Program-made: the position numbers and the translations under genes
Notes under the pieces: model-generated
The model's database searches: none
What the model saw: only the letters and a program-made list of their open reading frames with translations
What the model was told of the DNA's origin: nothing
IMG/VR virus record: IMGVR_UViG_3300005573_000242
Span: 1 to 28,052 of that record
Reading direction: 5' to 3' (one strand)
Length of the DNA: 28,052 bases
DNA from: a virus
Lineage: Duplodnaviria; Caudoviricetes
Shown here: piece by piece, positions 9,491 through 28,052 of the stretch
How the letters are laid out: each line of letters opens with the position of its first letter
Position numbering within the stretch: the stretch's first letter is position 1

Positions 9491-10747
9491 TTATATAAAC
9501 ATCTCTAAATGGTCTAATTTCAAAACAGATACTCTTTCTTTTCTCTGTCGCAAACTCCAAGAAGCCAACCCCAAAGACATTACACAATCATCTGTTTGGT
9601 TCTTATCATTCCATTCATACCATTCTAATTCTTTTATAAGTTGAGCAAACTTAGAAGGTATCATTATCTTTCTATGTTGTGTTAATACCTGAAGATGAGT
9701 TATTAAATCTGTTTTTGTTTTCTCCGTGAATATAAAAGGTTCTACAGGCAAATCTGAAACAAACTCAAGTATGGGGTCTCCTATACCCGTAGCATCAATA
9801 ATAATTTTAATTGGTTGCCATTCTTTATATAATTCCTCTAAGTATGTTATTTGGGTTTTCCAATTCGCTTGTGTTCTATATAAGAAAACAACCTTTGCTG
9901 GCTCTTCAGTTATATCAAGTATTGTTATTACTGTCCAATCATGCTTTCTCGCTAAATCCACGCCAAACACATATACATGATTTTCTTCTCTCTTATACTC
10001 TATATCTTCTTCTATAACTACATTTTTCAAATCAAAAGGATTGTCTTCAAGAAAAACAAACTCACCCAAACATTCTATCTTGAATAGTTTTTCAGGTAAG
10101 TTCCTTCGTTCTTCTTCTATTCGTTCAGAAGGTATCCAATCGCATTCTTCTAAGGTTGATGAAACTTTTTCATAATCTGGACTGTTCCACAACTCATAGA
10201 AAAGAGGCTTTTCTCCTTTTTCTATTTGTTTTGGTGTGGATACAATAATCTCTCTTGAAGGAGGAACAAGCCCACGCCCCATAGGCTTCAGAGTTTCAAG
10301 AAAGAAAGTAGGGTTTATTCTTGACATCTCATCTACAAACTTTATGTTAGGATGATACCCTACTCGTGTTTCTGCGGACTGTGGGATTGCTAAAACCCTT
10401 GACCCATTATTTAGATTTATCTCCATCTGTGTTTGAGGCTCTACAAACATTGAACTATATCCGTTCTGAACTAAGAAATTTCTTATTCTTCTGATATGCT
10501 CACTTGCTACATCTGCTCCGACTGTTGCAATTATCCCAAATTTATCTTTGTTGTGAAGTATATAATCCGTTGCCATTAAATCAAGCCATGTAGATTTACG
10601 CCCCCCTCGTGGTGTTTTTACTATCATGTGCTTCTGAGAATGCAGAAAAATATCAGTTGCCCTAACCTGCCATGAACGAAGTTCATAATTGTATAATCGT
10701 TTAAACCGTTCCTTGATTAAGTATTCTTCAAACGCTTTCTGTTGCAT
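9491..10747 (-). CDS. terL: terminase large subunit
   Basis: Q-motif 'LRSWQ'; Walker A 'PRGGRKS'; Walker B 'FVDE'; 'VSTP' coupling motif; RNase H-like nuclease 'GVDLARKHDWT', 'IDATGIG', 'DDCVMSL'. Confidence 0.93.
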   Translation of the reverse strand: MQQKAFEEYLIKERFKRLYNYELRSWQVRATDIFLHSQKHMIVKTPRGGRKSTWLDLMATDYILHNKDKFGIIATVGADVASEHIRRIRNFLVQNGYSSMFVEPQTQMEINLNNGSRVLAIPQSAETRVGYHPNIKFVDEMSRINPTFFLETLKPMGRGLVPPSREIIVSTPKQIEKGEKPLFYELWNSPDYEKVSSTLEECDWIPSERIEEERRNLPEKLFKIECLGEFVFLEDNPFDLKNVVIEEDIEYKREENHVYVFGVDLARKHDWTVITILDITEEPAKVVFLYRTQANWKTQITYLEELYKEWQPIKIIIDATGIGDPILEFVSDLPVEPFIFTEKTKTDLITHLQVLTQHRKIMIPSKFAQLIKELEWYEWNDKNQTDDCVMSLGLASWSLRQRKERVSVLKLDHLEMFI

Positions 10748-20562: not shown

Positions 20563-21750
20563 TTAGGTTGCTTTTATTATCTTCCCCTGTGCTTTACAGA
20601 AAGTAGATACATTGTTTGCCATCATCCAATACATACCCTTATCTGCATACTTCCCGATAGCAAACGGATTACCTGTAGATACACCTGCTTCATTATACTG
20701 AACAGGCTTAGCAACCCATACTCCTAGTCTTGGATACTCAAAGCCCTCAGGATTTGATGTATCAAGCAGGTATATGTTCTCAAGATAACCCCCGCTTCTC
20801 CCTGTTACATCCTTTGATACAATCACAGGTATTCCATAAAGCGTGGATATAGAGAACCCAGCATCATGTCCCTCAGGTGTGGCAATACCATTCACAGACA
20901 TCTTTACTTTCTTCTCTCCCAGAACATTATACCTTACTTCCGAGGAATACATCTTCTGAACTTTTGCGTAGGCTTCATATCCCATAACCCACAGTGTAGG
21001 ATTTGCACCGTTCTTTCTTACCTTCTTAATAAGGTCTATGATATCATCATCTATGAGTTCAGCTCCTGCCTTATCAATCACATTTGAGTTAAGCCATGTT
21101 GCTGTGCTTCTATCAAACCCATAAAGATACCTATGATTATTATCAGCCTCAACTGTATAATCTCCCACAATCAAATCAAGTGGATATGGTGAAATCGGCG
21201 AAGACACACTATTCCCTGAAATATTCGCCCAATCTGAAGCCTGCATACCGAGTATCTTATTTGTAACCTCAGCCTGCTCTATAGCATACTGCATCCTAAG
21301 ATGAGCAAGCCCCGCTATAGCGTCATCATGTCCCTGTCTTGCGAGATACTCCAACTGTGCTGAAATCTCAAAAACAACAGAAACAATCTGTGGAGTAAGG
21401 CTTACCTGCTCCCAAGACATTGTTTTTGCATCAGGTATAGTCATTCCTGAATCAATTCCTACTATGGTGTTATAGAAATCTGAACGATTTGTCAGAGCCC
21501 TAAAACCAGAATGTATCCAAGCAACCTTAGGAAGTGCACCAAATATATTTACATCACGGTTAAACTGAGCCCATGCATTCGCACCATATATCCTATTCCA
21601 CAAACCCGTTGTTCCTATCCCATGAATAGCGTCTGTCTTCATGAAATAAGTAGGGTCAAACCTATCTGAACTAAACGCATCTACCTGCACACCACCATAA
21701 TAATACCTTTCCATATCAAATATCGTCTTAAGAATCGGTCCCTCACTCAT
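20563..21750 (-). CDS. major capsid protein (HK97 fold)
   Basis: Follows protease/scaffold with a TAATG overlap; 395 aa; 'STLYGIPVIVSKDV' and 'YLLDTS' are HK97-MCP-like. Confidence 0.88.
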   Translation of the reverse strand: MSEGPILKTIFDMERYYYGGVQVDAFSSDRFDPTYFMKTDAIHGIGTTGLWNRIYGANAWAQFNRDVNIFGALPKVAWIHSGFRALTNRSDFYNTIVGIDSGMTIPDAKTMSWEQVSLTPQIVSVVFEISAQLEYLARQGHDDAIAGLAHLRMQYAIEQAEVTNKILGMQASDWANISGNSVSSPISPYPLDLIVGDYTVEADNNHRYLYGFDRSTATWLNSNVIDKAGAELIDDDIIDLIKKVRKNGANPTLWVMGYEAYAKVQKMYSSEVRYNVLGEKKVKMSVNGIATPEGHDAGFSISTLYGIPVIVSKDVTGRSGGYLENIYLLDTSNPEGFEYPRLGVWVAKPVQYNEAGVSTGNPFAIGKYADKGMYWMMANNVSTFCKAQGKIIKAT

Positions 21751-22757
21751 TAGAAATCACCTCCCCTTACCTGCTGTGTATATTCCACTCTTGCCATCGT
21801 TATCAAATCATTTATAGAAGGATTTACCTCCCCCCTTGCTATCATCATTCCCAAATCTACTTTCCCCTTTCTCACATCAGCCGTCGGTCTTGGCGTCTGA
21901 ACTACTTTATACCCTTCCTCCTTCTTCACCTGTTCTGCTATCATCTTCAGAACTTCCTCCCTCGTTATATCTTCTTTCTTAACACTCTCTTTCACTTCTT
22001 TCTCTGGTTCTTTATCCTTTTTATCTTCCTCTCCTTCTTCCTCTTCTATATCCTTATACTCAATCAAAGCCTGAATAAGTTTATCCATCTTCTGATTGAG
22101 TGCAGATATACTATCCACAAGTTTCTCCATATTTGTTGGCTCTACTTTCTCTTTCTTCTCATCTTCCTTTGGCTTCTCAGCCACATTCTCTTTTGGCTTC
22201 TCTTCTATTTTCTCATCCTTCCCTTCCATATTCTTCCTCTCCTCCACAACTTCTACTTCAACATCTTTTGCTTTCTTTTTCTCAACCTCCATAGACTTAG
22301 CAGTTGACAAAGAAACTATATTCGCTTCAGGGTTTGCAGGCTGAGAGGTTATAGATATTTCATAGAGTTCATCTATATCCAATTCCCTCCCTGATTTCCC
22401 CTCAATATCTTTCCTCTCAACCATCGCCCCTACTCTCTTCTTCCCACCTATTGATAATCCTTTTATCCTACCTTCTTTCATCCCTTTCCATATTTCATCA
22501 TCCAATTGATAATGGTCAAAAATCTTCCCTGTTATCATCACACCAGGCTTTCCATCTTTCTCCTTAAACTCATAACTCAAAATCTTCCCAACAGGTCTGT
22601 TTGTATGACTATCAAGTATAGGTCCCCCTCTATCCATCAAAAGAGGCATCAATTTTTTTATGGTATCTACTGGTATAATCTCTCCTTGTTTATCTACAGT
22701 TTCTACAGTCGCCCACGCTTTAAACAACCGTTCTTTATCATTCTCTATCTCTATCAT
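21750..22757 (-). CDS. HK97-family prohead protease with C-terminal scaffolding region
   Basis: 'VDKQGEII', His in 'DSHTNRPVG', Ser in 'GLSIGG', 'EISITSQPANPEA'; E/K-rich coiled-coil C-terminus. Confidence 0.9.
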   Translation of the reverse strand: MIEIENDKERLFKAWATVETVDKQGEIIPVDTIKKLMPLLMDRGGPILDSHTNRPVGKILSYEFKEKDGKPGVMITGKIFDHYQLDDEIWKGMKEGRIKGLSIGGKKRVGAMVERKDIEGKSGRELDIDELYEISITSQPANPEANIVSLSTAKSMEVEKKKAKDVEVEVVEERKNMEGKDEKIEEKPKENVAEKPKEDEKKEKVEPTNMEKLVDSISALNQKMDKLIQALIEYKDIEEEEGEEDKKDKEPEKEVKESVKKEDITREEVLKMIAEQVKKEEGYKVVQTPRPTADVRKGKVDLGMMIARGEVNPSINDLITMARVEYTQQVRGGDF

Positions 22758-23180: not shown

Positions 23181-23196
23181 TTATATAAACTTCTCT
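23181..23196 (-). promoter_or_regulatory. archaeal BRE/TATA promoter for the capsid-tail operon
   Basis: Minus strand AGAGAAG-TTTATATAA about 32 nt upstream of ATG 23149, in an intergenic gap. Confidence 0.6.
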
Positions 23197-23230: not shown

Positions 23231-23698
23231 TTATTCATGATACTTATCTTTAGCGTATATTATCATTTTCGCTAATGCAATAAGAATATAGGGTTGAGGC
23301 AAAACACCCTTTTTTTCTATAGACTTTTTTATTTTTATTGTGGCTTCTCTAAGTTTTTTCTTACCCCGTATCCTGAACTTCCTCTTCGCCCATTCTTCTA
23401 TTGCTTTGTAAGGAACATAATGAGGTCCTGAACCAAATTCTACTGCCCCTGAATATTTTGCTCCGTATATTACTTCCTGCTCACAACCGTTCTCTATAGG
23501 CTTTATTTCAGGGTTTTTCTTTATCATTTGTGCTAATTTACCTGTGTTAGCAATAGGGTATTTGTGATTGTAATATTTGAGTGTAGCAATATTTTCTCTT
23601 GAATAAAGAACTATCTTATCACATAAATCATTAGAAATCCCTTTGAACGCTCTATCCAATCCTTTTATTTCTACTTCATAGCAAATAATCATACTCAT
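23231..23698 (-). CDS. HK97 gp10-like / neck (tail completion) protein
   Basis: 'TGKL..I', 'YSGAVEFGSGPH' and 'PQPYI' motifs. Confidence 0.75.
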   Translation of the reverse strand: MSMIICYEVEIKGLDRAFKGISNDLCDKIVLYSRENIATLKYYNHKYPIANTGKLAQMIKKNPEIKPIENGCEQEVIYGAKYSGAVEFGSGPHYVPYKAIEEWAKRKFRIRGKKKLREATIKIKKSIEKKGVLPQPYILIALAKMIIYAKDKYHE

Positions 23699-24954
23699 AT
23701 TTTTACTCCCTCAAAAGGATTTTTCTCTCCTATATCTATCCTATATTGCTTCTTAGGAAGAATTATTTCTTCTGCTCTCTTATAAACTTCTTTCCTTACC
23801 TCTTCTAATCCATCCCCCACACCACAGACAGAACAAACATATCCTAATACACCCCCTGTTATCCATTCCTCATCTTTATATTCCAAATCATGAGGATAGA
23901 ACCCCTCTTTAGGTGTTTTCAATAAAGGTAAGCCTTTTCCAACAGACAAATATAAATCAGGTGAACTATTAGGGTATGGAGGCACTGTAATAAGAACACC
24001 CATAGCCCACAATTCTTTTATATTCATTTTGTCATACTTCATCCAATCTAACGCTTTATACCCGTTTTTCTTAAAAACTTCTATTTCTATAGACTGTGAA
24101 TTATAACCAAATCTCGGCGTGAACTCTAAAAACCAGTAATTCCCCTTACTATCCAAGATACCATTCACATTAAAGACACCTACATACTTCGCTTTCTTTA
24201 AATCATCTTCTAATTTATAAAGTGTTTTCTTAAAAAATTTAGTTGGCTTAGGTATCCAATATTGAACTTCACCTTCCTGTCCTGTATTAACAGACAAATC
24301 CCCAGCCAACCATCGTTTATACTCTCTATCTATGTAATATGGCATAATGAAACATTCACCATTGAAGAAACCTGTTATCCCTAACTCTATTCCTTCTATA
24401 TATTCCTGAAGCACAAAATCTACTTTTCCATATTCAGGTTTCCAATGATTTGAATAAAAATCAAACATTTTTAGCAAATCTTTATTATCATCCATCTCTG
24501 AAATATACAGTAAATCCTTTATATTCCCAGCCACACCATTAAATTTAATTACCCATCTCTTACCTGCTCCTTCTTTACTATCCAGAAACTCCTTCCCTTC
24601 TTCAAAAGAACTAAAACTCTTAACTTCTGGAATAGATACATCCATCTTCTTTGCTATTTCAGTTCCAAATTCCCTGTCTGTTTCTAATTTATCACAGAAA
24701 GATGATGCCCCCACTACCCAATACCCTTCTTCTTTTAATTCATCTGCTCTTGTTCCAAAACCCGTATCTTCAAAGATTATACAATCCACATCATCTTTTA
24801 TTTCTTCCCAGTCTTCAATTATGTTTACATATCCTTTAAGAATATCGCTTGCTTCTTCCTTCTGCTTATAAAAATAAACATCGTTCCCTTCATTCTTTAA
24901 AGCATATGCCAACGCACTTGATAACCCATCCTTACCTACTATTATATACTTCAT
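23695..24954 (-). CDS. PurD-like ATP-grasp ligase (divergent active site)
   Basis: Colinear with PurD over its whole length: 'KLETDREFG', 'VIKFNG', 'QEYIEGIE', 'YKRWLAGDLSVNTGQEG', 'LEFTPRFG', 'YRIDIG'; ATGA-coupled at both ends. Confidence 0.85.
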   Translation of the reverse strand: MKYIIVGKDGLSSALAYALKNEGNDVYFYKQKEEASDILKGYVNIIEDWEEIKDDVDCIIFEDTGFGTRADELKEEGYWVVGASSFCDKLETDREFGTEIAKKMDVSIPEVKSFSSFEEGKEFLDSKEGAGKRWVIKFNGVAGNIKDLLYISEMDDNKDLLKMFDFYSNHWKPEYGKVDFVLQEYIEGIELGITGFFNGECFIMPYYIDREYKRWLAGDLSVNTGQEGEVQYWIPKPTKFFKKTLYKLEDDLKKAKYVGVFNVNGILDSKGNYWFLEFTPRFGYNSQSIEIEVFKKNGYKALDWMKYDKMNIKELWAMGVLITVPPYPNSSPDLYLSVGKGLPLLKTPKEGFYPHDLEYKDEEWITGGVLGYVCSVCGVGDGLEEVRKEVYKRAEEIILPKKQYRIDIGEKNPFEGVKI

Positions 24955-25193
24955 TTTTCTACACCCCACCTTCTTTGACTTATCTTCTTTATATTATACC
25001 GCTTTCCTTTTCTCGACAACCATATTCCTACTTTTTTCTTGTATTCTACACCAATTCCCAATACCCTCAAGATACAATTTAAAGTAGCCCCCTGTGGTTT
25101 ATTCTTAAGATACCCTGATAAAAACTGAAGTTCTTCTTCTCTAAATATTATGCTCGTGTTAACGCCCTCCTGCAATTCGGATGTGGACACCAT
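24951..25193 (-). CDS. small basic wHTH-like protein
   Basis: 80 aa; overlaps the portal end and the ATP-grasp start; 'GATLNCILRVLGI...' helix pattern with a basic C-terminus. Confidence 0.5.
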   Translation of the reverse strand: MVSTSELQEGVNTSIIFREEELQFLSGYLKNKPQGATLNCILRVLGIGVEYKKKVGIWLSRKGKRYNIKKISQRRWGVEK

Positions 25194-27280
25194 TCTCTAT
25201 ATTTCAGATTCGGAAAGTATTTCTTACTCGTCTCTTCTACTATCTTTCGCATCTCTTTAAGTGGAACTCCATCTCCTACTCTCGCTTCTATCTCTTTACA
25301 ACATTCTGTAGTCCTATCATCGTTCACCCCCACCCATTTATAAAGAAACTTATCTTCTTCCGGGTCATCTATCTTATAGATTGCTTCATCCATCGCATTT
25401 AACAATGCCGTTCCTTCTGTCCTTGCAATAGTCTCCGCTTGAAAATCAGATATATCAGGAACTATTTCTTTTATCTTCTCTTTAAGTGTGTAAGCATCCA
25501 TTCCCGTTTTTATAGCATCAAGAACCGTTTTCTGTATTTGTTTCGACTTATGCCAATCTATTCCTTCAAACCGATGTTTCCAGATTCTTTCTTTCATTCT
25601 TTTTAGAATCTCAGGCGTAGTATATACAAAAGGATATTTTTGCTTTCTCACTTCATAAACATCCGCTATACTTTTATTAAACATCTCTTCTTCTTCTTTC
25701 TCTAAAAACTCACCATCACCCAAAGACCGCCGAACATCTATCGGAGCACCTGAGAACACACCATATCCATGAAGATGTGCAGGCTCACCCACAAACCTCT
25801 GTATCCCTATTTTAGGATCGTAAACTCCTGCTGGAAATCCCAACCCCGAAGGTATCACTTTCTCTTCTTTGCTTTCTTTTTTGTTTTGTGTAACCTTTAT
25901 ATCTCCGTTCTCCGCTAACTCAACATCAAATCCCAACTGCATATACATTAATGCGTTTTTAAGTTTTAAAGCCTCTATTTCATATTTGACCATCTCATCC
26001 CTAAACTCAACAGGATTTAACTTAAGACTCCAATCCTTTATACCCAGATTCTGACAAATAAACGGGAATATCTTTGAATTGTATATCTGCTGTCCCATCT
26101 GTATCGCTCTTGTCGTCACCACAACCTGAAGCCCTTCATTATTCATTCCCCCTTTTTGTGTCTCACCTACAAAAAGAGGCATAACCCCATACACAGCACC
26201 TATAGTCCTTCTGAACTCATCCCTCGCTTGTATGAACTCCATGTCTTTCAGATTATGCATGAAATCTATGAACTCCGCTATCTTTTTCCCTGAAGGATTG
26301 TCTATCGCTAATGGCGGGATAATATGCGGATTGTTAAAAAACATATCTAACATCTTTTGCCACGCTTTCTCAAAACTATCCGGGTTCGCTGTGTTCACAA
26401 ACAGAAGCCCTTTTGGTGGTCTCCCTCTCATGTAATAATCTTTTATGAAAGCATCCTGATACAAAAGTGATACTACTTTCATCCAACACGCATTTATAGG
26501 CGAAAAACCATATGTTAATGAAGGTCTGTATTTAGATACGTGACAGACCTCATCCCCTGAATAATATATCTTATTTAACCTCGCATCGCTCGAAGAAAAA
26601 TACGCAGACTTTAAGACAACCCCACATATAGGACATGTATCCCTGTCTTTTTGTAATTGCCCCCTGTGCTGAACACAAAACTTTAAAGACTTACCCTCAT
26701 CATCTTTCCCCGGCTCCCCCGCATTGTTCGCTATTATCTTCATTATCTCCGGCGATATTCGCACCCATTCATCTACTTTCTCACTGATAATCTCCCCTTC
26801 ATCAGAAACCTTATATACCTTCTTACAAAAAAGATACGCATCATCAAACACATTCATATCATCTTCTATCCCTCGTAATATATCTATTAAATCCTCTCCA
26901 TTCTTATTCACAGACCAGAACTCATCTAATAAATCTTCTAAAATCTTTCTCTCTGTTATGTTCGGAGGTATCACTTCCCCACCACAATATGAACATTTCT
27001 CCACTTCTACTTTGAACTTCGCATGACAGTTTATACACTTCCTTACAAACCTCGACTCTACCCCTATCCCACTCCTGAACATCTCTACATGCAACGCATT
27101 TATTATCGTCGATAACACATCACTCGTTCTCGATAACTCCCTCAACTGCTGTGCCGAAAACGGCGATGTCGGTATCTTCTCCACATCCCCTACTCTCTGC
27201 CCTAACGGTAAAACAGGTCTTATCCCCTCTATCTCTCTCTCTTCCGACTTCCTAAATATCTTCTTTATAAACTCAAACAT
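25148..27280 (-). CDS. portal protein with Zn-ribbon insertions, fused to a C-terminal MuF (SPP1 gp7-like) domain
   Basis: Portal motifs 'YGFSPI', 'GRPPKGLL', 'DMEF....R..I...YGV.P..VG'; CxxC pairs; MuF 'AETIARTE', 'YKW...DDRT...C', 'PHPNCRR'. Confidence 0.88.
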   Translation of the reverse strand: MFEFIKKIFRKSEEREIEGIRPVLPLGQRVGDVEKIPTSPFSAQQLRELSRTSDVLSTIINALHVEMFRSGIGVESRFVRKCINCHAKFKVEVEKCSYCGGEVIPPNITERKILEDLLDEFWSVNKNGEDLIDILRGIEDDMNVFDDAYLFCKKVYKVSDEGEIISEKVDEWVRISPEIMKIIANNAGEPGKDDEGKSLKFCVQHRGQLQKDRDTCPICGVVLKSAYFSSSDARLNKIYYSGDEVCHVSKYRPSLTYGFSPINACWMKVVSLLYQDAFIKDYYMRGRPPKGLLFVNTANPDSFEKAWQKMLDMFFNNPHIIPPLAIDNPSGKKIAEFIDFMHNLKDMEFIQARDEFRRTIGAVYGVMPLFVGETQKGGMNNEGLQVVVTTRAIQMGQQIYNSKIFPFICQNLGIKDWSLKLNPVEFRDEMVKYEIEALKLKNALMYMQLGFDVELAENGDIKVTQNKKESKEEKVIPSGLGFPAGVYDPKIGIQRFVGEPAHLHGYGVFSGAPIDVRRSLGDGEFLEKEEEEMFNKSIADVYEVRKQKYPFVYTTPEILKRMKERIWKHRFEGIDWHKSKQIQKTVLDAIKTGMDAYTLKEKIKEIVPDISDFQAETIARTEGTALLNAMDEAIYKIDDPEEDKFLYKWVGVNDDRTTECCKEIEARVGDGVPLKEMRKIVEETSKKYFPNLKYREWCPHPNCRRALTRA

Positions 27281-27283
27281 GTT

Positions 27284-27330
27284 TATTACCGGAGGTAATA
27301 TTCTACTCCCACCTTTATATATTTTTTCTC
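27284..27330 (-). promoter_or_regulatory. BRE/TATA promoter of the portal operon with a downstream inverted repeat
   Basis: Minus strand GAGAAAAA-ATATATAAAG about 33 nt upstream of ATG 27280; TATTACC-n3-GGTAATA at 27284-27300. Confidence 0.55.
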
Positions 27331-27407
27331 CCCACCCCCCTTCCTTCTTCTCTCTCTTCCCTTCCCTTTATATCCTATCCTTTCTTTTTTATTTTCTATC
27401 CCCATCA

Positions 27408-27565
27408 CCACTAGTTTCCTCGATATCCTAATAATAAGTATTTCTCCACTAGTTACTTCGATATCTTAAAATATTATACCACTAGTTACCTCGATATTAT
27501 TATAAAAGTATTTCTCCACTAGTCACCTCGATATCCTATAGAATATCATTAGTTTCTTCAATATC
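27408..27565. repeat. five iteron-like 20-bp direct repeats, consensus CCACTAGTTACCTCGATATC
   Basis: Copies start at 27408, 27446, 27479, 27516 and (degenerate) 27546; followed by an extremely AT-rich tract at about 27565-27700. Confidence 0.9.
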
Positions 27566-28052
27566 TTTAAAAATAAAATAAATATTATTTTTTTAATGTT
27601 TTTTTTAATTTTTTTAATAAGTAAATCCTAAATATCATTTAAAGAACAAAGAAATAAAAAAATATTTATTTAATAAATATTTTTTTAAAAAGAAAAAGAA
27701 AGATACACCCCTAAAATTCTAAAATACTCCCCAATCAGAAAAGAACTATCCCATCCCCATGTCAAATGCTATACATAAACACGACCCATGATAACATAAA
27801 CCCCAAAAAAATTATATACTTTCATAGAACGCACAGAAAAGGGGTTTCCTGGCGTTCGAAGGTTGGGATGGGTAATTATAAGGGGTAAGTCTTTCGACTG
27901 CGTTTTTCAAGGCGTAACATGGGGTTTATTTTTGTTTTTGGATGGGAGGATAAGGATGTGGGGGACAGAGGAAGGGTAAGGGGATATATCGATAGATACA
28001 GAGGGGATAGGGATAGAGATAGAGGGGGGTAATGTCTTGTATCATATATTAC

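Follow-up and report, generated by a model that had tools for sequence, protein, structure and literature searches.

We found that the window, that is the whole 28,052-nucleotide (nt) sequence of the tailed-virus record IMGVR_UViG_3300005573_000242 (Duplodnaviria; Caudoviricetes; linear, completeness estimated at 21%), codes on its minus strand for an ATP-grasp ligase with the fold of the purine enzyme PurD, a glycinamide ribonucleotide (GAR) synthetase. The ligase is probably an active enzyme that works outside purine synthesis and is tied to the virion. More specifically, we propose an amide ligase carried in the virion and acting on protein amines, a reading in which packaging and substrate are predictions and to which we give a probability of about 0.4. 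The initial annotation of the window had read the gene as a non-purine amide ligase belonging to the portal operon. Its interpretation is partly supported: the non-purine character and the link to head genes held, whereas the specific link to the portal-MuF gene was confined to this virus group and a unit containing a small 80-amino-acid open reading frame (ORF) was not conserved.

In Pfam and NCBIfam searches with the ligase minus its first Met, the Pfam profiles GARS_A (1.5e-12) and GARS_C (2e-5) were matched and GARS_N was not, and the score against the PurD family TIGR00877 was 90.9 bits, below the cut-off of 288. The AlphaFold2 model (pLDDT 94.9) showed the four-domain GARS fold, and among the Foldseek matches listed the top 14 were all GAR synthetases, with template modelling (TM) scores of 0.67-0.74 and identities of 17-22%. 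Atlas clusters with Uroviricota or Bacteroidota as the commonest phylum reached TM scores of 0.89-0.93, compared to 0.78 for true PurD. RimK and tubulin-tyrosine ligase (TTL) are ATP-grasp protein modifiers; their profiles and that of R2K gave no match to the ligase in Pfam and NCBIfam at E 0.01. With PurD (TIGR00877; PDB 2xcl, 2ys6, 2yw2, 1gso) the ligase has in common the N-B-A-C fold, GARS_A and GARS_C, the ATP and metal residues, apart from the metal-binding Asn, and the Arg contacting carboxylate and acyl phosphate.

The difference from PurD lies in the substrate pocket. In the available text of PMC8449271 and PMC2978367, the phosphoribosylamine (PRA) site of PurD consists of an Arg and a Glu of the N domain, an Asp of the A domain and an Arg of the C domain, and the glycine site of Asp, Arg, Asp and Glu with a Tyr or Phe near the ammonium group. 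Our alignment combined 28 canonical PurD and, from the ligase family, 112 viral, 82 cellular and 159 metagenomic members; viral and cellular rows shorter than 380 amino acids and metagenomic rows outside 380-580 amino acids, including intein-bearing ones, were omitted. The PRA-binding residues correspond to L11, S12, Y284 and Y372 in the window ligase and are replaced family-wide, and from the glycine site the Arg alone is kept (R281), the others being E211, Y284 and S286. The window ligase retains E91, K137, E190, K213, E277, R281 and R405, and its rebuilt pocket comprises R94, E211, N262, N264, T279, Y284, S286 and Y372, with the motifs EYK (211-213), VNTGQEG (222-228), TPRFGYNS (279-286) and GYV around Y372. 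The motif swaps are those that the initial annotation had claimed, except that GGREH aligns to DGLSS 9-13, one residue off its GLSSA; the nucleotide and metal residues that it had called conserved (K137, E190, E277) are present.

The same pattern runs through the family. Among the 112 viral members, the retained residues are nearly invariant (E91 in 111, K137 in 110, K213 in 108, E277 in 109, R281 in 111 and R405 in 107), and so are the family-specific R94, E211 and T279 (110 each), which are Lys, Asp and Asn in PurD. The ATP-grasp residues K137, E190, K213, E277 and R281 are kept, but in the same 110 viral members Thr279 takes the place of the Asn in the metal-binding Glu-x-Asn. GGREH, NTGGMG and RFGDPE, found in 22, 27 and 27 of the 28 PurD, occurred in 0/112 viral, 0/82 cellular and 0/159 metagenomic members, and GGRV in 2/353; a motif test opposing GGREH, RFGDPE and GGRV to E-x-K and EFT-x-RFG[YW] separates PurD from the ligase family. 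Relative to PurD, the ligase lacks the Arg/Glu, Asp and C-domain Arg for PRA and the Glu for glycine, and has gained a Glu, Asp/Asn, Asn, Thr and Tyr/Trp. In a 112-row subsample, Asp 262 (0.87) and Asn 264 (0.77) are conserved where PurD has Tyr and Gly (the window ligase has Asn at both), which argues for a pocket rebuilt rather than decayed. We infer from these residues that the ligase would be an active enzyme with a new donor and a new acceptor.

Purine context is missing as well. None of the 27 larger ORFs scanned in the window, a fragment at the completeness given above, is another purine gene, in agreement with the initial annotation. In the 50 longest carrier virus records, 41 of which are at least 90% complete, no PurF was found over cut-off (0/50, with one partial match of 41 bits) and no AIRS domain of PurM/PurL (0/50). 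The IQ-TREE split between family and PurD falls on a long branch with a Shimodaira-Hasegawa-like approximate likelihood-ratio test (SH-aLRT) support of 100 (40 versus 15 rows); it was also obtained at 100/100 with 31 versus 5 rows and with 25 versus 14 rows, so that the ligase does not nest within the cellular PurD sampled, the placement that would have told against the initial annotation. FastTree recovered the split with a support of only 0.36. Since the trees are unrooted (no outgroup), long branches meet and the PurD sample has no verified euryarchaeal or crenarchaeal sequences, a position of the family as sister to PurD is supported but not proven. The window ligase clusters with P0002, P0003 and L003.

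The family also has a cellular branch, for which 594 of 601 genome-scan matches were confirmed; 80 were kept, with 63-77% identity to P0005. Canonical PurD stood alongside the cellular ligase in 5/5 bacteria. Five further genomes comprised two with canonical PurD and three without, in which PurM was unmatched too, and another five had PurD over cut-off in one; these genomes are incomplete. In cells the ligase is a paralog of true PurD. With the pocket lost family-wide, the separate clade and the missing pur partners, this bears out the view that the gene is no purine auxiliary. The cellular branch clusters with the viral L005-L007 (95/96), a grouping that suggests, without proving, a virus-to-cell transfer. 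In the archaeal genomes L196, L200 and L225 there are two cellular-branch ligases, in tandem or flanking a GNAT gene. An Acetyltransf_6 GNAT adjoins the branch in 16 of the 80 genome loci; the link was not upheld in metagenome loci, where a GNAT lay within three genes in 0/76. In a profile search of 50%-identity representatives, 1,716 matches had an E below 1e-30 and may include some true PurD. Inteins with LAGLIDADG domains occur at several sites in the ATP-grasp core (P0034, P0044, P0052, P0097, P0100, P0110, P0161, P0189-P0240), P0044 apparently having two.

In the window, the ligase gene belongs to a block of head genes with the following features:

27314..27321, minus strand: TATA-like box TATATAAA, 33 nt upstream of the portal start and preceded by a purine-rich stretch; candidate archaeal-type promoter
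25148..27280, minus strand: portal protein with a C-terminal MuF (SPP1 gp7-like) domain, 710 amino acids (Pfam and PHROG)
24951..25193, minus strand: 80-amino-acid ORF, possible winged helix (low-confidence Atlas model)
23695..24954, minus strand: PurD-fold ATP-grasp ligase, 419 amino acids, start ATG at 24954 (profiles, structure model, alignment)
23231..23698, minus strand: neck1 / tail-completion (gp10-like) protein, 155 amino acids, ATGA-coupled to the ligase (phrog_5, 2e-5)
23182..23189, minus strand: second TATA-like box, an exact match, ahead of a 129-amino-acid gene and the protease-scaffold and capsid genes
21750..22757, minus strand: prohead protease with an E/K-rich scaffold region (PF04586, 2e-9); its counterpart directly follows the ligase in L003

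The portal-MuF protein matched Phage_portal PF04860 (E 9e-9, under its cut-off), Phage_Mu_F PF04233 (7e-8) and the PHROG portal profile (3.7e-38). Direct reading of the sequence bore out the four genes of the initial annotation and their ATGA stop/start overlaps at 24954-24951 and 23698-23695; the portal gene and the 80-amino-acid ORF overlap by 46 nt. An alignment search with portal-MuF, made without the ligase, retrieved four loci that represent three distinct viruses, and the ligase lies just downstream in 3/3. In L003 it follows portal-MuF directly, is ATGA-coupled and shares 48% identity. In L381 (36% identity) it follows after a gap of 114 nt and is itself followed by a neck1-like gene, as in the window; the neck1-like homologue of L003 is elsewhere. 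In the window the 80-amino-acid ORF stands between portal-MuF and ligase. A protein of 1,236 amino acids, P0135, unites portal, linker, ligase and MuF in a single polypeptide.

The neighbourhood survey drew on 165 loci from four viral scans (for one scan, the best 80 of 104) and one phage record. Their 165 ligase ORFs, the window included, reduced to 113 at 90% identity, and in two loci ORF calling had missed the gene. To label the neighbours, 60 cluster representatives were used together with 112 further neighbours, almost all of them taken from a list of 154, so that the virion-gene counts are lower bounds. An identified virion gene was on the ligase strand in at least 89 of the 113 distinct viral members, and only on the opposite strand in 0/113; at least 80 of the 113 had one within four genes. 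Replication genes were on the strand opposite to the ligase in 25/26 loci, and stop/start coupling with the gene upstream was seen in 49/109 ligases. Many ligases of podovirus-like phages come after the last of the large genes for ejection or internal-virion proteins, a second group lies between capsid-side genes and a virion protein, and others are found at terminase-portal (L035, L138, L139, L141, L144, L149, L157, L159, L164) or in a myovirus baseplate module (L013). The family-wide link is with virion modules generally, most often with ejection-protein genes. The conserved linkage to head genes that the initial annotation expected was thus found, with the portal-ligase-MuF fusion in addition, and homologs lacking it are not the rule; its narrower version, a linkage to portal-MuF, held in this virus group and failed across the family. 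The family spans podovirus-like, myovirus-like and probably archaeal viruses, with more than 100 distinct viral members in the sample.

Several further observations came from the same loci. A tblastn of a phage collection returned no cultured carrier, only the uncultured MW202796 and ordinary bacterial purD; in the GenBank record of that complete phage genome the ligase gene (L002 15001-16263, MW202796.1 42140-43402) is intact and unannotated. The scan with the A5 sub-alignment gave no viral loci. Tandem divergent ligase paralogs are present in two viruses (L035 1592-8880, L060 6381-9332); downstream of the pair, L035 has terminase, then a small gene bearing a HAD-like motif, then portal, and in L060 a nucleoside deoxyribosyltransferase-like gene lies directly upstream. 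An HExxE...H protein of 120-150 amino acids, with no convincing Pfam match, occurs at most three genes from the ligase in six distinct viruses (L056 7654-8028, L061 5282-5689, L115 7039-7425, L124 9209-9655, L142 7654-8046, L145 7155-7535).

Fusions of the ligase to other domains were also found. In 14/113 viral members, and also in P0081 and P0120, the C-terminus carries a small HAD domain; this domain is N-terminal in P0067 and, in L141, encoded by the neighbouring gene. A weak match to a SET domain was obtained for P0084. Six sister portal-MuF proteins of P0135 (62-73% identity) have no ligase and a variable linker, and one of them carries a weak C-terminal match to an ADP-ribosyltransferase (ART; E 0.0012, under cut-off). 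An HE-x-x-E segment of the P0135 linker was considered as a relative of the small HExxE proteins and dropped, as profile and BLAST searches were unsupportive.

The virion-carried reading draws on the fusion, on the position among ejection genes and on the published view of MuF and portal fusions as head-packaged, injected cargo (Iyer et al. 2017, PMC5512222; Iyer et al. 2022, PMC9503650, in their available text). According to it, the ligase would likely be made together with the head proteins and likely be loaded into the particle at the portal-MuF vertex; the reaction predicted for it is the attachment of an amino acid to amines on a target protein, either while the DNA is being delivered or afterwards. 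ATP would phosphorylate a carboxylate (K137, K213, E277, R281), and the resulting acyl phosphate would then be attacked by an amine. An acid is conserved at 211, and the family has Asp 262 (Asn in the window ligase), which suggests a donor still bearing an amino group and perhaps different from glycine. As the cationic phosphate-binding Arg residues are lost and the general-base Asp is replaced by Tyr/Trp, the acceptor may be an uncharged or aliphatic amine, such as a lysine side chain. It is the pocket residues that suggest these substrates. It is also possible, though less likely than not, that the family forms a widespread class of such enzymes: PurD relatives repurposed by bacterial and archaeal tailed viruses and loaded at the portal or the ejection apparatus, which would aminoacylate host or virion targets as infection begins, have HAD partners in some viruses, and of which one branch later became cellular.

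Several points weigh against a virion-carried lysine ligase. The P0135 fusion comes from a single sequence, on a single 65-kb contig; looking for longer forms, a weak test in itself, brought up no second portal-ligase fusion. The window ligase has no fusion and no N-terminal extension usable as a loading tag. The HAD fusions hint at a phosphorylated product or substrate, needless for a plain lysine ligase, and the conserved cellular branch works without any virion. Ligases stand at terminase-portal and in a baseplate module as well; 24/113 members lacked a labelled virion gene (L005 and L035 received one later), and the T4-like L033 and L036 lie near PhoH-type genes with no identified virion gene nearby. 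The search patterns biased the sample to two podovirus-like groups. Finally, gene position is the same for a packaged enzyme and for one acting at assembly.

An assembly-time modifier, which would aminoacylate or cross-link portal, ejection or tail proteins and not be carried into the host, is the strongest alternative, at a probability that we judge low but appreciable. It fits the spread of the ligase over several virion modules (terminase-portal, ejection, baseplate), the GNAT and Asp/Asn-hydroxylase-like genes in the same podovirus gene blocks and the weak SET match of one member, and some phage ATP-grasp enzymes are predicted protein modifiers (R2K, in the available text of PMC7824862). 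The portal-ligase-MuF fusion, however, would put the ligase inside the head, and a target motif common to such different modules is absent. A small-molecule ligase outside purine synthesis, making an aminoacyl-amine or aminoacyl-sugar-phosphate (for example a counter-defence metabolite) and placed among late genes for timing, is improbable. PurD-type ancestors act on small molecules, HAD is associated in at least three arrangements (C-terminal, N-terminal, adjacent gene) and the GNAT adjoins the cellular branch in some genome loci; that link vanished in the metagenome loci, however, the viral members lack common biosynthetic partners, and the tight ejection and portal coupling exceeds what timing alone needs.

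More doubtful still is an enzyme that modifies bases or genome ends of the packaged DNA, or else the co-packed polyamines. The recurring neighbours terminase, portal, MuF and ejection proteins are indeed all involved in moving DNA in and out, the HAD partner is similar to phosphatases of the end-healing kind (HAD_SAK_2, E 9e-4) and the deoxyribosyltransferase-like gene of L060 would fit; base-modification genes, however, are not general companions (GTP cyclohydrolase I is limited to about 6 loci) and DNA-binding domain fusions are absent. Nothing in the analysis points to the polyamines or the E/K-rich scaffold that the initial annotation had offered as targets. A catalytically dead or structural virion component reusing the PurD fold is very improbable: the metal-binding Asn has become Thr and the GLAAGK loop is lost, yet the catalytic K, E and R are near-invariant at about 25-30% overall identity, polar residues are newly conserved and several members carry inteins. 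That the gene is a true divergent PurD, as the GAR synthetase matches (best in sequence and structure among solved proteins) and the database name phosphoribosylamine-glycine ligase of its relatives would have it, is hardly credible given the profile score, the replaced PRA and glycine residues (as far as PMC8449271 and PMC2978367 describe them), the separate clade at 100/100, the lack of PurF and AIRS in carrier records, the canonical PurD beside the cellular ligase in the five bacteria and the three further genomes where that ligase is the sole match and PurM is unmatched.

Of the other features of the locus, the 80-amino-acid ORF is missing between portal and ligase in both L003 and L381 and is therefore placed outside the conserved unit, to which the initial annotation had assigned it as a winged-helix gene. 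The ORF itself exists; the winged-helix label is weak, with an Atlas model of pLDDT 0.69, TM scores of 0.56-0.63 against winged-helix clusters and zero Pfam, PHROG or NCBIfam matches. Archaeal promoters have a TATA/BRE (B recognition element) layout. Both boxes that had been called promoters are present (27321-27314 and 23189-23182), and as their 8-mer is common in the AT-rich window (9 exact and 151 one-mismatch matches, 107 expected), a promoter role is plausible and indistinguishable from background. A scan for sigma-70 promoters gave no more matches than chance would (15 versus 20.5). Residues ~80-220 of portal-MuF (27040-26620, minus strand) contain inserted Cys-rich motifs (CxxC pairs), kept in L003 and probably zinc-binding. 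The terminase large subunit (9491-10747, minus strand) is at the far end of the tail genes, ~14 kb away from the portal, unlike L003, where a terminase-like gene is just upstream of it. The record also encodes PCNA, an ERCC4 nuclease, a Sak4-like ATPase, tail tube, tape measure and capsid, besides the terminase, prohead protease and portal; PCNA and ERCC4 indicate that the host is probably an archaeon. Two hot-spring metagenome DNA runs that contain the record may be its source; no RNA run was among those listed as containing it. At the non-coding end, four imperfect ~30-nt repeats containing ATATCGA...ACTAGTGG (27390-27530) are followed by a strongly AT-rich stretch with inverted runs (27570-27700), a possible origin or regulatory region.

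Compared to known systems, the ligase resembles MuF- or portal-fused cargo and polyvalent proteins in being an enzyme that occupies a variable slot, either next to ejection proteins or next to or inside portal-MuF; unlike fused cargo, it is usually a separate gene. The available text of PMC5512222 and PMC9503650 names ART, PBECR, 2H, Nudix, RelA/SpoT, PRTase, kinases, GNATs and metallopeptidases as cargo, and ATP-grasp only for RNA and DNA ligases. In its gene arrangement, the family shows the fusion or operon with portal, MuF or ejection genes that marks head cargo. With RimK, TTL and R2K (the last from the available text of PMC7824862) it would share acyl-phosphate, amide-forming chemistry and possibly a proteinaceous target; it belongs to another branch of the fold, with PurD as its nearest relative, whose C domain it has retained. 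Set against PurD, it differs in its virion-module location too. A literature search, which left out supplements, most subscription papers and the Iyer et al. 2009 amidoligase review, found no description of a PurD-derived virion enzyme.

Going by their available text, purD figures among the auxiliary genes of complete phage genomes in PMC11097641, and PurD clusters are listed for vent viruses in PMC12043954. Viral genes of the ligase family have probably been mislabelled as purine-metabolism helpers, and, if our proposal is true, some 'purD' calls in virome studies would be misannotations. The cargo and assembly enzymes known from tailed viruses would then gain an amide-forming member, and the cellular branch, in small-genome archaea and diverse bacteria, would be a source of soluble, testable proteins.

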